Of a stretch of 64,000 nucleotides of DNA, positions 3,737-45,091 are shown in pieces (within the stretch, counting starts at the first letter, position 1; each line of letters opens with the position of its first letter). Origin of the DNA: Deltaproteobacteria bacterium (GTDB taxonomy: Bacteria; UBA10199; JACPAL01; GCA-016699445); assembly GCA_016699445.1 (NCBI GenBank), contig CP064976.1, positions 2,222,619 to 2,286,618 on the forward strand, given 5' to 3'. Below the pieces are notes generated by a model, which saw only the letters and a program-made list of their open reading frames with translations, searched no databases and had not been told where the DNA came from. Both the position numbers and the translations under genes were made by a program.

Positions 3737-3853
3737 GGCCCCCACCACCCCTTCGGGGAGCCTCCCCCATAAATGAGGGAGGTCACAAAGGACCCTCCCT
3801 TTTTAGGGGAGGGAAATTGAGAGAATCGAAAGTAGTGATGGGTGGGGTAGGAG
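3737..3853. repeat. Structured intergenic repeat, family A copy 2
   Basis: GGCCCCCACCACCCCTTCGGGGAGCCTCCCCCATAAATGAGGGAGG...GGGTGGGGTAGGAG; ends 7 nt before ATG 3860. Confidence 0.8.
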
Positions 3854-3859
3854 AAAATT

Positions 3860-4264
3860 ATGGAAAGAAAACTTAGAATACTAGTCGCTAAACCCGGTCT
3901 TGATGGACATGACCGTGGAGCTAAAATTATCGCACGTGCTTTACGTGATGCTGGTTTTGAAGTGATTTATACAGGTCTACACCAAACCCCTGAAATGATC
4001 GCTGATGCCGCTTTGCAAGAAGACGTCGATTTAGTGTCTCTCTCTATTTTATCCGGAGCTCACAATCACTTAATGCCCGAAGTGATTCGTCTTTTGAAAG
4101 AAAAGGGAATGGGGGATGTGTCCATCATTGGTGGTGGTATCATTCCTCAAGAAGATATTGTGACGTTGAAACAACAAGGCGTGAAAGAAATTTTTACTCC
4201 AGGAACCGACACGCGTGATGTTGTGAAGTGGATCGAAACCAATATCCAACCACGAAGTTTATAA
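3860..4264 (+). CDS. Acyl-CoA mutase B12-binding (small) subunit
   Basis: 134 aa with cobalamin-binding DxHxxG motif ([15 protein letters not shown]) and Rossmann-like B12 domain. Confidence 0.85.
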
Positions 4265-4397
4265 TCCCCCACCACCCCTTCGGGGAGCCTCCCCCATAAA
4301 TGAGGGAGGCCAAAAAACAAAAAATCGCAAAATAAATGACCCTCCCTTTTTAGGGGAGGGAAGTTCCTATCATGAAATTATTGAGGGTGGGGTAGAG
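4265..4397. repeat. Structured repeat, family A copy 3 (with ~25-nt internal insertion); 3' arm overlaps the UbiA-like gene C-terminus
   Basis: Same 5' half as copies 1-2; the GGGTGGGGTAG arm read on the minus strand encodes the terminal ..LPHPQ* of ORF 4378..5238. Confidence 0.75.
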
Positions 4398-19470: not shown

Positions 19471-20484
19471 ATGAAGAGAATTGATTCTAAACAGGCTCTA
19501 AATATTTGGGAAAGTGATTGGACGTCACTTCGATCTCAATCTCATGAAGCGCGTTGTGAACATTATCCTGATGGGCAGGCGAGCTATGTTGTCATGCGGA
19601 TTGTGAGCTATACCAATGTTTGTGTGGCGGATTGTTCTTATTGCGCCTTCTACCGTCGACCCAATGACGATGGGGCTTATGTCCTTTCGAAGGAAGATAT
19701 TTTTTCTAAAATTGACGGACTTCTAGCTGTTGGTGGGTCGGTGGTGGCTATGGAAGGGGGATTTAATCCCAAGCTTAAGATTGAACATTACGAAGATCTT
19801 TTTGCGTCCGTGCGTAAGCGCTATGGAGATAAGATTGAGATTTATGGGTCTACGATTGTCGAAGTGATTTTCATTGCGAAGAGTTCGCGTATTTCACTGG
19901 AAGAAGCTCTCATCCGTCTCAAAGAAGCTGGATTGCGTTGGATTCCGGGTGGTGGTGCTGAAATTTTAACCGATGCCTGGCGCGCAAAGCTTTCTCCTAA
20001 AAAATATTCGGTGAAAGATTATATTGAAGGCATGCGAGTGGCACAAAAACTTGGACTCGGTACCACAGCGACGATGGTGATTGGTTTTGGTGAAACAGTT
20101 GCCGACCGTATTGAGCATCTCGAACATATCCGTCGTCTTCAAGATGAGACAGGTGGTTTTGCGAGTTTTCTTTTGTGGACCTACCAACCCCTCAACACTC
20201 CCATGGGAGGCTCTCTCACCAGCAATGACGACTATCTTCGCTCAGTCGCCTTAAGCCGTTTGTATTTGGATAACATCCCTGTGATTCGTGCGTCTTTTCT
20301 CACTCAATACGACAAAGGCCCCGAAGCTCTCACTGCCGGTGCTCATGATTTTGATATCCCTCTAGAAGACCAAGTCACCCAACTGGCCGGCGCCAAGATT
20401 GAAGAAAATGTCGATCGTGTGTTGGAGTGGGTAAAGAAGTCTGGGATAACCCCTCAGAAAAGGCTCCCATTTTCTTTGAAATGA
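19471..20484 (+). CDS. Radical SAM menaquinone biosynthesis enzyme, MqnC/MqnE family (futalosine pathway)
   Basis: 337 aa; CxxxCxxC cluster motif in SYTNVCVADCSYCAF. Confidence 0.8.
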   Translation: MKRIDSKQALNIWESDWTSLRSQSHEARCEHYPDGQASYVVMRIVSYTNVCVADCSYCAFYRRPNDDGAYVLSKEDIFSKIDGLLAVGGSVVAMEGGFNPKLKIEHYEDLFASVRKRYGDKIEIYGSTIVEVIFIAKSSRISLEEALIRLKEAGLRWIPGGGAEILTDAWRAKLSPKKYSVKDYIEGMRVAQKLGLGTTATMVIGFGETVADRIEHLEHIRRLQDETGGFASFLLWTYQPLNTPMGGSLTSNDDYLRSVALSRLYLDNIPVIRASFLTQYDKGPEALTAGAHDFDIPLEDQVTQLAGAKIEENVDRVLEWVKKSGITPQKRLPFSLK

Positions 20485-20537
20485 TAAATTCCTATTGGAA
20501 TAAAATATTCTAATAGGAATATTTTATTGTAGATTGG

Positions 20538-20615
20538 CTGTCATCGCGAGCGAAGCGTGGCGATCTCCCGATATTAAGTGTGAGATCGCCACGCCCTTCA
20601 GGCTCGCGATGACAG
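20538..20615. repeat. Hairpin repeat, family B copy 1 (long imperfect inverted repeat)
   Basis: CTGTCATCGCGAGCGAAGCGTGGCGATCTC ... GAGATCGCCACGCCCTTCAGGCTCGCGATGACAG; related copy at 44448-44526; lies 3' of the MqnC/E gene. Confidence 0.75.
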
Positions 20616-20618
20616 GCA

Positions 20619-21438
20619 ATGTTTCCCTATATAAATATGAATCTTCATTGTTTAAAAATTAAAAGCCAAACCGCCCCTCATAAAACCTTCTTTTTCCTCC
20701 ACGGTATTATGGGACGTGGGAGAAATTGGCAGCGCTTTGCGACAGAGCTAGTTCAGCGAAAACCAGATATCGAAGCGGTATTGGTCGATTTGCGTTTGCA
20801 TGGCGAGTCTCAAGGTTTTGATCCACCGCATACAGTACGAGCTTGTGGTGAAGATGTGGTAGGGGCAATTCATGAATTGCCCTTACAAAATGAAAAAAGT
20901 GATCGTTGGACATTCGTTCGGAGGGAAGGTGGCTCTGGAAGTTGCGCGACTCGCTCCTGATTTACTTTCAGCAATTTGGCTCATTGATTCATTTCCAGGT
21001 TTGTCTGCAAGGCATGGTGATGCTTGGAAAATGATTGAATGGCTTCAAAAAAATGAAGGTCCTTTTACAACACGGACAGAAGTGCTTAAAAAATTAAAAG
21101 AAGCGCAATTTCCCGAAGCCATCGCTGCGTGGATGGCGACCAATCTAGAACCCGAAGGAAAACTTTTAAAATGGATTTTCCCCGTGAAGGGCATCGCGAG
21201 TCTATTAGATGATTACGCCAAAACAGATTTGACCGACACACTCCTCAATCCACCATGTCCTATACATGTCGTGAAGGGGACAAAGTCGCCTTTGATTACG
21301 GATGATTTAATCCAGAAAATCCAACATTCAAAAACCAGATTTCCAATTTCCCTTCACTTCGTCGAAGCCGGACATTGGGTGCATTCTGAAAATCCGAAAG
21401 AATTGCTAAGAATAATGATGTCATCTTTTAAAGGATAA
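20619..21438 (+). pseudogene. Alpha/beta hydrolase, reading frame interrupted by a 28-bp palindromic insertion
   Basis: N-part FFFLHGIMGRGRNW..DLRLHGESQ (frame 0) and C-part KKVIVGHSFGGKVA.. (frame 1, GxSxG nucleophile); deleting 20859-20886 joins ..GEDV to KMKKVIVGHSFGG in frame. Confidence 0.65.
20859..20886. mobile_element. 28-bp palindromic insertion element, copy 1 (one mismatch)
   Basis: GTAGGGGCAATTCATGAATTGCCCTTAC; same element at 25885-25912; exact excision restores the hydrolase frame. Confidence 0.75.
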
Positions 21439-24926: not shown

Positions 24927-26215
24927 TTACAACACATCCATAAACGCACTCACCGAAAAGACGGCCTTGCCTAATCCTGCTTCTCCATAACCGGGTGGGA
25001 TGGGGAGTTTGTATTTGTAAAAAGTCTCTCGATACACTTGGAGGAGGCGTAAGTAATAATCCAGAGGTGGCGGGCCTTCGTTGGTTTTGGCCAATGTGGT
25101 GTTCGGTTCGACACACCACACGGTGAAGCGGGGGCAGATGGATTGTGACATGAAAAAATCTAAACCCTCTTGCGTAGATCGAATCGCAGCTTCGATATCC
25201 GTGAAGCCAAAAGGTTTGGCCATCTCGATGCCGGCAACAAAATTAGGAATGACTTTTTCAGGGCCGAAAATTTTGGCTCCAGCCAGAATGCGGCGGATCC
25301 ATTCTTTTGACCGACATAGCGTGTTTTACCAGGACAGACGTGGTTAAAAATCTTTTCATCCCAGACTTCATAATTCGGGTGATAAATTTGATAGCCGGAA
25401 TCTTTTAAAATTTTAATTTCGTCATCAGGCAATCCTTGCACCACAGCCTTGCCAATCCAACGCCCGGGAAATTTTGCCTCGATGGCTTGAGCATATTGAG
25501 CGTAAAACTGTGCCTCGTTCATGCCACCCAGTTGTGAAGTGATACTGCCTCCGGTGACGGTATAAGCATGGCTCAGTTTTTGAGGATCATGTTTTTCAAT
25601 AATCTGCAGGGCTTCGATGACTTCATCTAAAGATTTGATTCCTGTATAAGAACGACCTTCGGCCTTTTGTTGGCGGTAGTTGTGGTTGATGTCGCAAAAC
25701 GCACATTCTTCTTCGGCTCCAAAATACTGACAGAGACGGAAGGCGGTAATGTAAATCAAATATCCCCACTCAATCGTGGGTGTGATATCGCTGACAGGTT
25801 TTCCATTAGCGAGGGGTTGTGCGTAATAATCCGGAAATGATGGGAGAAGAATGTCGCAGATTTTTTCGTCGTGAAAAAATAATTGTAGGGGCAATTCATG
25901 AATTGCCCCTACGGTGATTCGATACGGCGATTCCGGATTCACACGTACAGAAACTATCGTACGTTTAAAATCAAAAGGTCCTCCAATGAGGGCAATTTCT
26001 TCAGGTGCTGATTTTTTTTCTAGTTGTGAAAGATCTTTTTGAGCGGTGCGATCAAAGGAAAAAATAAAATAGGATTTTGGTTTGGCAGCTTTGCAGGCTT
26101 CCAAGGCTTCATTTGAAAATGAAATACCTAAACGTAGTAGATCTGTTTTGATGATCGCTTCAAATGGAATATCGCAGTATGTCTCCTTCAATATTAAAAA
26201 ATCTTCAGGCTTCAT
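24927..26215 (-). CDS. Hypothetical protein with Cys cluster (CX8CX2C) and TGG motif, possibly radical-SAM-like; contains the 28-bp palindrome in frame and a frame change near 25310
   Basis: ORF 25160..26215 reads through the palindrome (..ITVGAIHELPLQLFF..); C-terminal continuation in the frame of ORF 24927..25223 (..RRILAGAKIFGPEKVIPNFVAGIEMAKPFGFTDIEAAIRS..). Confidence 0.4.
25885..25912. mobile_element. 28-bp palindromic insertion element, copy 2 (perfect palindrome)
   Basis: GTAGGGGCAATTCATGAATTGCCCCTAC; encodes VGAIHELPL in the host ORF, the same peptide as copy 1. Confidence 0.75.
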
Positions 26216-43630: not shown

Positions 43631-44314
43631 CTAATTAGTGGAATGATCGTGATCGGCTTCATTGAAAGCGTAGTAGGATCCATAAACATCCTGAAGCTCA
43701 GCCACGAGGTCTGTATCCAGAGTGTGAACGACTGTATTCATGCCATAATTAGGATTCATGATCGATCCAGCGATTGTCGTATGTTCTAAACCAAAGAAAT
43801 GTCCCATTTCATGAAGGAGATTCGTTTTGATATCATAGCGACCTTCGCGAACACGACAGTTAGACTCGCCAGCGGGGCAATTTAAAACGGCATAAGTTGC
43901 AGGATCTCTGAAAATTTCTATGTCGGATTCGATAATGGTGTTGCCGCTAAATTTGCGATAAGTCATTCCAAGGTGACCTTGAGTATCGCCTTCACGATTC
44001 CAGGAAATAACATTCTTTCCATCCCATTCTTTTTCAGCATCCGTACGACCACGGTATTCCACTAAGCTACGACCCACAGCTTCTTCCCAATCCTGAAAAG
44101 CTTCTTGGATCACAGGAACAAATTCATCGGGGACATTATTACTAATATAGTAAGGAACAGCTTCTTGCCCAACCCAGCTTTTTTGGAGCACAGCTTGTGT
44201 GTTGTTTTGTACATGAATTTCAACCGCATGATTTTCAATAGAGGATTGACCGCATCCGACCAAACTTCCCAAAACAACTGCTGTCATGATGATTTTTGAA
44301 AAACTATTTTTCAT
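43631..44314 (-). CDS. Matrixin-like (metzincin) zinc metalloprotease, lipoprotein
   Basis: HEMGHFFGLEHT (HExxHxxGxxH) plus Met-turn SIMNP; signal peptide with lipobox LVGC. Confidence 0.7.
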   Translation of the reverse strand: MKNSFSKIIMTAVVLGSLVGCGQSSIENHAVEIHVQNNTQAVLQKSWVGQEAVPYYISNNVPDEFVPVIQEAFQDWEEAVGRSLVEYRGRTDAEKEWDGKNVISWNREGDTQGHLGMTYRKFSGNTIIESDIEIFRDPATYAVLNCPAGESNCRVREGRYDIKTNLLHEMGHFFGLEHTTIAGSIMNPNYGMNTVVHTLDTDLVAELQDVYGSYYAFNEADHDHSTN

Positions 44315-44447
44315 CTCGTTCTCCCTAGGGCCTATAAGAGCAAGCAAGAGGCCAAAGAAAAAAGATGGTTAAGTTGATGAAATGATAGGGATTGATGCAG
44401 TGCGGCCAAGGTTAAAGCTGGGGTGAGAAATCCTCATAAAGAGTTGT

Positions 44448-44526
44448 GTTATGGCGAGCGAAGCGTGGCCATCTCCCGACCTTTATGAGATCACCACGTC
44501 GGCCTTCGGCCTCCTCGTGATGACAG
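44448..44526. repeat. Hairpin repeat, family B copy 2
   Basis: ..GGCGAGCGAAGCGTGGCCATCTCCCGAC..GAGATCACCACGTCGGCCTTCGGCCTCCTCGTGATGACAG; lies immediately 3' of efp. Confidence 0.7.
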
Positions 44527-44530
44527 AACA

Positions 44531-45091
44531 CTACTCAGCTCTTTCGACGTATTCGTTTGAGGATGTGTCGACTTTGACCTTATCTCCCACTTGGATAAAT
44601 TGAGGTACTTTTACTGTTAAGCCATTGTCCAGCACAGCTGGTTTGGCACTTCCAGAAGCGGTGGCACCCTTCATTGGAGGATCGGTGTCTTTGACTGTTA
44701 AAACCATCGTTCCAGGGAGCTCCACTCCGATCGGACGTTCTTCATAAAATTCGATCGATACTTTTGTATTGGGTTGAAGATAGTGAACGGCATTTCCCAG
44801 ATCTTCTTTGTTCATATGAATCTGTTCGTAGGTGGTAGAATCCATAAACACAAACTGCTCACCATCTTGATAAAGATATTCCATTTCCTTTTCAACAAAA
44901 GTGGCTTTTTCCACACTATCTTCTGCACGAAATCGATGTTCATTTTTTAGACCTGTGCGCATGCTGCGAAGCTGGGTCATGACTTTAGCGCGAAGATTTC
45001 CAGGAGTCAGATGGTCTACTTTAAGAACACGATAAAGCTCTCCATCAAGAACAAGAGCCATTCCGACACGAATTTTTGTTGCTGGTAACAT
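44531..45091 (-). CDS. efp: Elongation factor P
   Basis: 186 aa, full-length EF-P (KPGKG-type loop region, three beta-barrel domains). Confidence 0.9.
   Translation of the reverse strand: MLPATKIRVGMALVLDGELYRVLKVDHLTPGNLRAKVMTQLRSMRTGLKNEHRFRAEDSVEKATFVEKEMEYLYQDGEQFVFMDSTTYEQIHMNKEDLGNAVHYLQPNTKVSIEFYEERPIGVELPGTMVLTVKDTDPPMKGATASGSAKPAVLDNGLTVKVPQFIQVGDKVKVDTSSNEYVERAE

Follow-up and report, generated by a model that had tools for sequence, protein, structure and literature searches.

Paired hairpin repeats downstream of mqnC and efp in a deltaproteobacterial genome resemble REP/REPIN elements and are built from a widespread self-folding unit

Two hairpin-forming repeats, one behind an mqnC-like gene and one behind efp, are probably non-autonomous palindromic repeats of the REP/REPIN kind: inverted pairs of a tagged, self-folding unit that have been inserted at their present sites, and of which the single-stranded DNA form would be handled in trans. 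They lie in the same 64-kb window (the whole stretch of 64,000 nucleotides analysed here), and the features of the two loci are listed in Table 1. An initial annotation of the window had reported both as imperfect inverted repeats of about 80 bp, and direct reading of the sequence confirmed that they are real, with ends that differ from those first given by no more than 1 nt. The 25-nt core that had been noted in them, CGAGCGAAGCGTGGCGATCTCCCGA, does recur, at 20547–20571 without mismatch and at 44455–44479 with one mismatch.

Table 1. Repeat units and neighbouring features at the two hairpin loci (positions are those of the window; units on the − strand are written as read on that strand).
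Feature	Position	Strand	Description
mqnC-like gene	19471..20484	+	radical-SAM/CofH_C; upstream of copy 1
AT-rich hairpin with T-run	20488..20529	+	intrinsic-terminator-like, mqnC; found by scanner; conserved in L198
Copy 1	20539..20614	+	dimer of two inverted units, tags outward; 76-nt near-perfect hairpin
U1	20539..20567	+	TGTC-ATCGC-GA-GCGAAGC-GTG-GCGAT-CTC; own hairpin predicted with DNA parameters
Spacer between U1 and U2 tails	20568..20581		loop of the long hairpin
U2	20582..20614	-	TGTC-ATCGC-GA-GCCTGAAGGGC-GTG-GCGAT-CTC; longer apical hairpin
alpha/beta-hydrolase gene	20637..21438 (start about 20637)	+	downstream of copy 1
Peptidase_M10 gene	43631..44347	-	downstream of copy 2; synteny kept in relatives
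Copy 2	44447..44525	+	inverted pair of units that differ in subtype; 5 nt past the efp stop codon
U3	44447..44475	+	TGTT-ATGGC-GA-GCGAAGC-GTG-GCCAT-CTC; outer stem ATGGC/GCCAT
U4	44487..44525	-	TGTC-ATCAC-GAGGA-GGCCGAAGGCC-GACGTG-GTGAT-CTC; outer stem ATCAC/GTGAT
efp	44531..45091	-	precedes copy 2 in the direction of transcription

Matches to the core number two in the window against none in 100 dinucleotide-preserving shuffles, and neither blastn-short nor a scan for the unit pattern revealed a third copy within the 64 kb. Nothing apart from the presence of just two copies in 64 kb speaks for chance inverted repeats, or for hairpins that evolved independently in place; besides the empty shuffles, a 26-nt unit is shared by hundreds of unrelated loci, and we regard this explanation as refuted. 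Calculated folding energies indicate a very strong hairpin at copy 1 and a weaker one at copy 2. As RNA, copy 1 reaches −60.2 kcal/mol (z −9.8), and copy 2 reaches −37.9 for the + strand (z −3.8) and −32.4 for the transcribed − strand (z −1.7); with DNA parameters the values are −39.8 for copy 1 (z −11.3) and −17.8 for copy 2 (z −2.9). A search of Rfam at gathering score returned just a tRNA in the window, and at E<=10 nothing meaningful was found around copy 1.

Read 5' to 3', the general unit comprises a YGTC tag, a 5-bp outer stem starting with AT, the GA side of an internal loop, a mini-hairpin at the apex (either GCGAAGC or a variable stem with a GNA triloop), a GNR sequence, the closing side of the stem and a C(T/C)N tail. 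Its length is ~26–39 nt in the family and 29–39 nt for the four units of the window, which carry the tags TGTC (three units) and TGTT (one unit), a CTC tail in every case and the AT...AT stem start in 4/4. Across 430 family units the base before GTC is T in 235 and C in 172 (Y in 407/430), and the commonest tails recorded are CTC (215), CCA (96) and CCG (51). The loci fetched contain 442 units, 167 of them distinct, and where units are adjacent their tags point outward in 80 cases and inward in 9, the other 38 being direct. The apical hairpin of U4 is GGCC-GAA-GGCC. What had been described as a GGCC-UUCG-GCC tetraloop in copy 2 is this triloop mini-hairpin of the − strand seen in complement; if copy 2 is read as C-UUCG-G, the next outward pair would be C.C.

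Compensatory change keeps the predicted small hairpin of each unit, not the long hairpin. At the third position of the outer stem, the 5' side of which was never specified in the search pattern, 203/210 units are Watson-Crick, with T-A, C-G, G-C and A-T all present, and the others divide into 3 T.G and 4 other mismatches, with no enrichment of G.T. A survey that began from loosely defined heads found nine outer stems that pair with their own complement, namely ATTGC (325/379), ATCGC (89/97), ATCCT (8/13), ATTCT (8/10), ATTCC (6/7), ATGGC (4/4) and ACTGC (3/4), with one instance each of ATCCC and ACTCT. There are 131 different apical centres, mostly self-complementary, and their triloops are GAA, GCA, GTA, GGA or AAA. 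Over 86 distinct units, paired cells amounted to 92.5% against 87.8+/-0.4 in shuffles, and double-change cells to 19 against 4.0+/-1.8; the observed pairing or double-change value was matched in 0/500 shuffles, and slid controls paired at 16–63%. Pair 5-26 is AU in 71 of these 86 units and pair 6-25 is UA in 74.

The dimers allow the unit hairpin and the long hairpin to be set against each other directly. Where the arms are discordant, the left 5' stem base fits the 3' stem of its own unit in 28 cases and the opposite arm in 3, a comparison for which solely unambiguous anchors were used. The two outer stems of copy 2 are each perfect, while pairing between its arms includes a G.G mismatch, and copy 2 is thus a pair of different unit subtypes and not a decayed form of copy 1. 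Nearest-neighbour DNA parameters give lone units little folding stability (z −0.1 to −1.9), so that the unit hairpin is supported by comparison and not by thermodynamics. Hairpins of the type d(GCGNAGC), closed by a GNA triloop, stand out for their stability as DNA but not as RNA. The GNA triloop and the tandem G.A positions of the unit would fit a form that acts as single-stranded DNA.

The gene in front of copy 1, which had been named as MqnC/E, specifies a radical-SAM/CofH_C protein with homologues named cyclic dehypoxanthinyl futalosine synthase, in agreement with MqnC, and the EF-P identity of the gene preceding copy 2 was likewise confirmed. Comparison with related genomes establishes both copies as lineage-specific insertions into intergenic spacers without target-site duplication. 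The gene order Transgly / efp / Peptidase_M10 is common to relatives with 89–90% identical EF-P, and their efp–peptidase spacers can be aligned with that of the window to the left and right of a single gap, where the window has the element and a few further bases and the relatives lack ~80 nt. No direct duplication was found at the junctions when the filled and empty versions of this spacer were compared. After mqnC, the closest MqnC relative (the 90% relative, L198) keeps the AT-rich hairpin and TTTATTG and lacks the element. The 90% relative, in which the terminator hairpin is present, has a different gene downstream; in an 84% relative, the start of the hydrolase gene overlaps the mqnC stop. 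Locally, the terminator hairpin and copy 1 together separate mqnC from the hydrolase, two genes that overlap in the 84% relative. Related phages also differ in the presence of a unit, in the spacer between the capsid and adaptor genes (L003 compared with L066).

A 19.5-kb short-read contig from Logan (SRR12404947, L001) with an identical efp stops inside copy 2, 35 nt past the stop codon (L001 3561–3596), and this end is an assembly break at the repeat. The hydrolase gene behind copy 1 looks split, with ORFs at 20619–20960 and 20872–21438 and a change of frame in an A6 run at 20893–20898. Removal of one A from this run restores ..LQNEKVIVGHSFGGKV, which agrees with the peptide of the orthologue. 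A hydrolase pseudogene produced by insertion of the element was considered and rejected; the frameshift, which falls within the A6 run, is probably an indel of the assembly.

Judged by matches in sequence collections, the unit forms a very widespread family that extends across bacterial phyla, phages and GTA-like clusters. The pattern GCGAGCGAAGCGNNGCNATC, in which the tag and the 5' half of the stem were left unspecified, matched at least 120 IMG/VR contigs, and GTCATT stands directly upstream in almost all of the matches listed. The variant specific to the window, GCGAGCGAAGCGTGGCBATCTCC, was found in 76 stretches of 33 genomes from about ten phyla, at loci with a G+C of 40 to 67%. Outside the element, none of the 76 stretches coincides with the window. 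Its carriers are Halomonas, Porticoccus, Thiotrichales, Alphaproteobacteria, Desulfocapsaceae, a 'Deltaproteobacteria' MAG, Clostridia/Eubacteriales, Rhodothermales, Fodinibius, Chloroflexi/Anaerolineae, Acidobacteriota, Aminicenantes, Omnitrophota, Patescibacteria and Fidelibacterota. Among cultured carriers are Novosphingobium (at least 40 places on one replicon), Methylosinus, Methylocystis, Aulosira and Halomonas, and the matches in them are all unannotated.

A location mostly inside genes, which had been named as evidence against the hairpin proposal, was not seen: by crude ORF calls, 61/76 copies at the genomic loci are intergenic, compared with about 18% of non-coding DNA. Such counts do not represent independent events, since a sequence pattern was used to pick the loci and many of them share a genome or belong to related phages. 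In the window, too, both copies lie between genes. The family uses spacers between tandem, convergent and divergent genes, and relative to the flanking genes 15 copies in genomes are co-oriented and 12 are anti, the corresponding figures for viral single units being 42 and 40.

Most of the viral matches listed belong to one of two groups defined by synteny: tailed phages that combine an SPP1-type portal with an HK97-type capsid, and GTA-like clusters. Lone units are strand-uniform within phage contigs (73/78). Five of these contigs (L064, L066, L013, L117 and L012) carry single units with varied apical hairpins in several intergenic gaps, and 10/0 and 15/0 are examples of the strand counts per contig. 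Units of the L003/L066 group are co-oriented with the genes, and those of L012 are antisense to confirmed terminase, portal and methylase genes. When strands were assigned by local GC skew, the C-rich strand carried the canonical units in a ratio of 82:43 in viral contigs (L002–L121) and of only 38:28 at genomic loci. This excess may reflect a strand bias of replication or transcription, but the relatedness of contigs and the orientation of genes are confounding factors.

Several other arrangements were observed among the fetched loci. Direct head-to-tail arrays of units, with a period of 37–45 nt and spacers of about 11–19 nt, occur in L012 (2670–2856 and 12666–12781), L020 and L091; they superficially resemble CRISPR, but the spacers are far too short. 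Within the window, CRISPR was rejected on inspection (no array), as were an integron attC site (no RYYYAAC/GTTRRRY cores) and a k-turn (a bulge of 1 nt rather than 3 nt). In the MAG nXXbin1 (JADGCS01; L144, L157, L172, L179, L188, L190 and others), a ~170-bp repeat that has terminal inverted repeats of its own, TAGTGTCTGTCGGGAAA ... TTTCCCGACAGACACTA, encloses the YGTC dimer in its middle, and several contigs end there. Units with the same tag and other outer stems stand beside canonical units in L040 (8283–8700) and in a spacer of L109 (CGTCATCCTGAACTTGATTCAGGATCTC, GTCATTCCCGAATGC..CGGGAATCC and TGTCATCCTGAGCGCAGTGAAGGATCTC), which hints at a wider superfamily with head and tail in common.

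Both hairpins had initially been seen as following a stop codon in an orientation that suggested a terminator-like role or an mRNA-stabilising REP. Both copies are indeed downstream of a gene, but the claim about orientation does not hold: the two have the same + strand orientation, mqnC is on the + strand and efp on the − strand, and the copies therefore face opposite ways relative to transcription. The assignment to REP-type repeats is borne out in kind, while the functional role is weakly supported and would be secondary at most. Copy 1 lies 17 nt behind the AT-rich terminator-like site and is followed by GGCAAUGUUUCCC, where a canonical U-tract is absent. On the − strand, copy 2 is followed by CAACUCUUUAU, a weak U-rich stretch that is offset by 3 nt and that relatives already have at their empty sites; the terminator scanner, by which loops >8 nt are not scorable, picked up only the separate AT-rich site, at 20488–20520, and reported none at copy 2.

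It is unlikely, in our estimate, that the elements are primarily RNA hairpins, serving as Rho-independent terminators or as barriers to 3' exonucleases that stabilise the upstream mRNA. REPs of E. coli protect 3' ends, and a role of this sort would suit the strong hairpins formed on either strand, the position of both copies downstream of a gene, the start of copy 2 5 nt past the efp stop, the absence of any other terminator-like site near it, the U-rich stretch that follows it, and the single, co-oriented unit found directly after the major capsid gene in one phage group. It sits poorly with the opposite directions of the two copies relative to transcription, with the independent, conserved terminator ahead of copy 1 and with the lack of a canonical U-tract at both. 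In the wider family there is no orientation bias with respect to genes, divergent spacers are used too, and 15/15 units of phage L012 are antisense to confirmed genes; the covariation of unit hairpins rather than the long hairpin, and the G.T pairs that are not enriched, also argue against such a role. Like intrinsic terminators, the element is a GC-rich hairpin after stop codons, but it differs from them in having no U-tract, in the identity of its sequence at unrelated loci and in unrelated phyla, in that its orientation is irrelevant, and in that copy 1 comes after a separate terminator. An incidental effect on the 3' end of efp is possible, and a dedicated terminator role is not supported.

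The preferred reading, an inserted REP/REPIN-like repeat, invites comparison with described families. The generic features of REPs are all present, since the unit is an imperfect palindrome of 20–40 nt that is repeated and mainly extragenic. The text of the paper on CGTC-tagged REPs (Di Nocera, De Gregorio & Rocco 2013, BMC Genomics 14:522, PMC3733652) describes a CGTC, TGTC or CCTC tag, a stem that starts with A-T and, mostly, a CCA tail. According to the same text, these repeats are mostly inverted dimers, intergenic, spread over five phyla and without a dedicated transposase; Neisseria dRS3 and Rickettsia RPE-4/RPE-6 are members, and CGTC-1 to -4 have contiguous stems of 8–9 bp with loops of 4–5 nt. 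As far as these descriptions go, the present unit is alike in its unpaired CGTC/TGTC tag at one end (here Y at the first base), in a stem that begins A-T, T-A, and in its occurrence as intergenic inverted pairs capable of forming one larger hairpin, in several phyla and without a linked transposase. Its short tail would be a further likeness, with CTC here the commonest form and CCA the next. It differs from them in having a 5-bp stem, a GA/GNR internal loop, an apical stem of 2–8 bp and a 3-nt GNA loop, and in a wider range that takes in Clostridia, Chloroflexi, Acidobacteriota, Patescibacteria, Omnitrophota and phages. The sequence strings of the unit are absent from the accessible text and supplements of PMC3733652, and literal unit sequence and peptide strings gave no match in the searchable literature. 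Set apart by the descriptions in the text of that paper, the unit is probably a REP-like repeat nearest to the CGTC-tagged superfamily and a distinct family rather than one of CGTC-1 to -4.

Other REPs and dRS3 have been described as integration targets or protein sites. The hairpins could correspondingly be a DNA site used by the host, bound or cleaved by gyrase or a nucleoid protein or targeted by an IS110-type element or filamentous phage, and kept for that role and not as a selfish element. We consider this quite unlikely, although the tag and AT-start stem are, by the published descriptions, common to CGTC-tagged REPs such as dRS3, the conserved internal loop resembles a protein-recognition feature, and the copies adjoin housekeeping genes. 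In close relatives the corresponding sites are without the element and show no visible replacement, no IS-interrupted copies were noticed, and the near-identity of units in phages and about ten phyla argues for horizontal spread and against a host-specific site.

GTAG-tagged REPs and REPINs, as found in E. coli and Pseudomonas, are mobilised by RAYT (Y1 HUH) transposases. The present elements share with them a short imperfect hairpin beside a 4-nt tag, inverted doublets as the common form, the absence of target duplication, and the coexistence of singlets, doublets and clusters. They differ in that the tag is YGTC, not GTAG, in that no RAYT gene lies near any copy examined, and in that the unit is cross-phylum, whereas REPINs are confined to a genus or species. 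Identity with the GTAG/RAYT REPINs was rejected on account of the wrong tag.

Searches for a linked enzyme covered several sets of flanking genes. No RAYT (Y1_Tnp) gene was found within about 4 kb of the copies in 33 other genomes, and Pfam detected no transposase or HUH protein in 113 flanking ORFs or in 126 ORFs of unit-dense phage contigs. All-vs-all clustering of ORFs from 33 genomes in search of a mobilising enzyme yielded only histidine kinases and ABC ATPases as shared proteins. The genes adjoining the copies belong to 160 Pfam families and are housekeeping genes, for example those for GyrB, release factors, MetRS and citrate synthase, and where two elements enclose genes, these are ordinary ones of the phage or host.

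With MITEs such as Correia/NEMIS, RUP and ERIC, the elements have in common that they are small non-coding repeats with inverted ends that form a long hairpin and lie between genes; they differ in having no target-site duplication and in being made of self-folding sub-units that are also found alone. A classical MITE would be a deletion derivative of an insertion sequence with a DDE transposase, mobilised via its terminal inverted repeats. The inverted outer 11–12 nt (TGTCATCGCGAG / CTCGCGATGACA), a fitting size of ~78 nt, the multi-copy occurrence with insertion polymorphism, and the dimer of nXXbin1 inside its larger repeat are all in keeping with such an origin, which we nevertheless hold to be very unlikely. 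The clean comparison of empty and filled sites is without target-site duplication, TIR-dependent transposition does not account for the single units and direct arrays that are common, the arms are often of different subtypes, and no IS with these ends was seen in about 200 loci. A strict MITE identity was accordingly rejected, the inverted ends being present but the target duplication not.

In the favoured REP/REPIN-like reading, each element consists of two inverted units with tags outward and tails facing a short spacer, and we propose a mechanism for them. By analogy with REP-RAYT, the unit may act as a folded single-stranded DNA hairpin beside its short tag, and an enzyme with its gene at another place could recognise and move it in trans, an HUH/Y1 (RAYT-like) nuclease being the best analogy. 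Pairs of units may arise from doublets or move as such. Effects on neighbouring mRNAs, such as 3' protection, partial termination or the uncoupling of mqnC from the hydrolase, would then be a by-product of the insertion of a strong hairpin.

A further interpretation, which we put forward tentatively and rate as rather unlikely, is that of a pan-bacterial, phage-borne single-stranded DNA hairpin element, the mobilising or maintaining machinery of which is not encoded beside it. If so, either a new class of hairpin-recognising enzyme would be involved, or copying linked to replication or packaging, with phages and GTA-like particles as vectors; these suggestions follow from the cross-phylum near-identity, the strand-uniform placement in several intergenic gaps of some phage contigs and the heterodimeric pairing. 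A REP-like repeat that is nearly unchanged across distant phyla and phages, with no linked transposase, sharpens the question raised in 2013 of what moves the CGTC-type REPs, and the covariation at the level of the unit provides a concrete biochemical substrate, consisting of the tag, the internal loop and the GNA loop. In practical terms, hairpins of this type break short-read assemblies, seed spurious ORFs and can pass for terminators; once the unit is recognised, they can be masked and catalogued.

Other repeats are also present in the window. A GTAG-tagged palindrome of 28–30 nt, GTAGGGGCAATTCATGAATTGCCC(T/C)TAC(AA), lies inside two coding regions, at 20859–20888 and 25883–25912, and at both sites is in frame as the decapeptide VGAIHELPLQ. 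The hosts are the alpha/beta-hydrolase, in which it replaces RLMKDYGDG of the L199 orthologue, and an ORF at 25160–26215 on the − strand. These palindromes look like RPE-like intragenic REP insertions. A third GC-rich family of hairpin repeats occurs at 87–212, 3739–3864 and 4266–4365, with the sequence CCCCCACCACCCCTTCGGGGAGCCTCCCCCATAAATGAGGGAGG... followed by GACCCTCCCTTTTTAGGGGAGGGAA, and is presumably the family that the initial annotation had counted as its first. Finally, five diverged direct repeats of ~49 nt, spaced 195–384 nt apart between 36255 and 37447, fall within the − strand ORFs 35840–36919 and 36822–37505, which suggests a repeat-domain protein.
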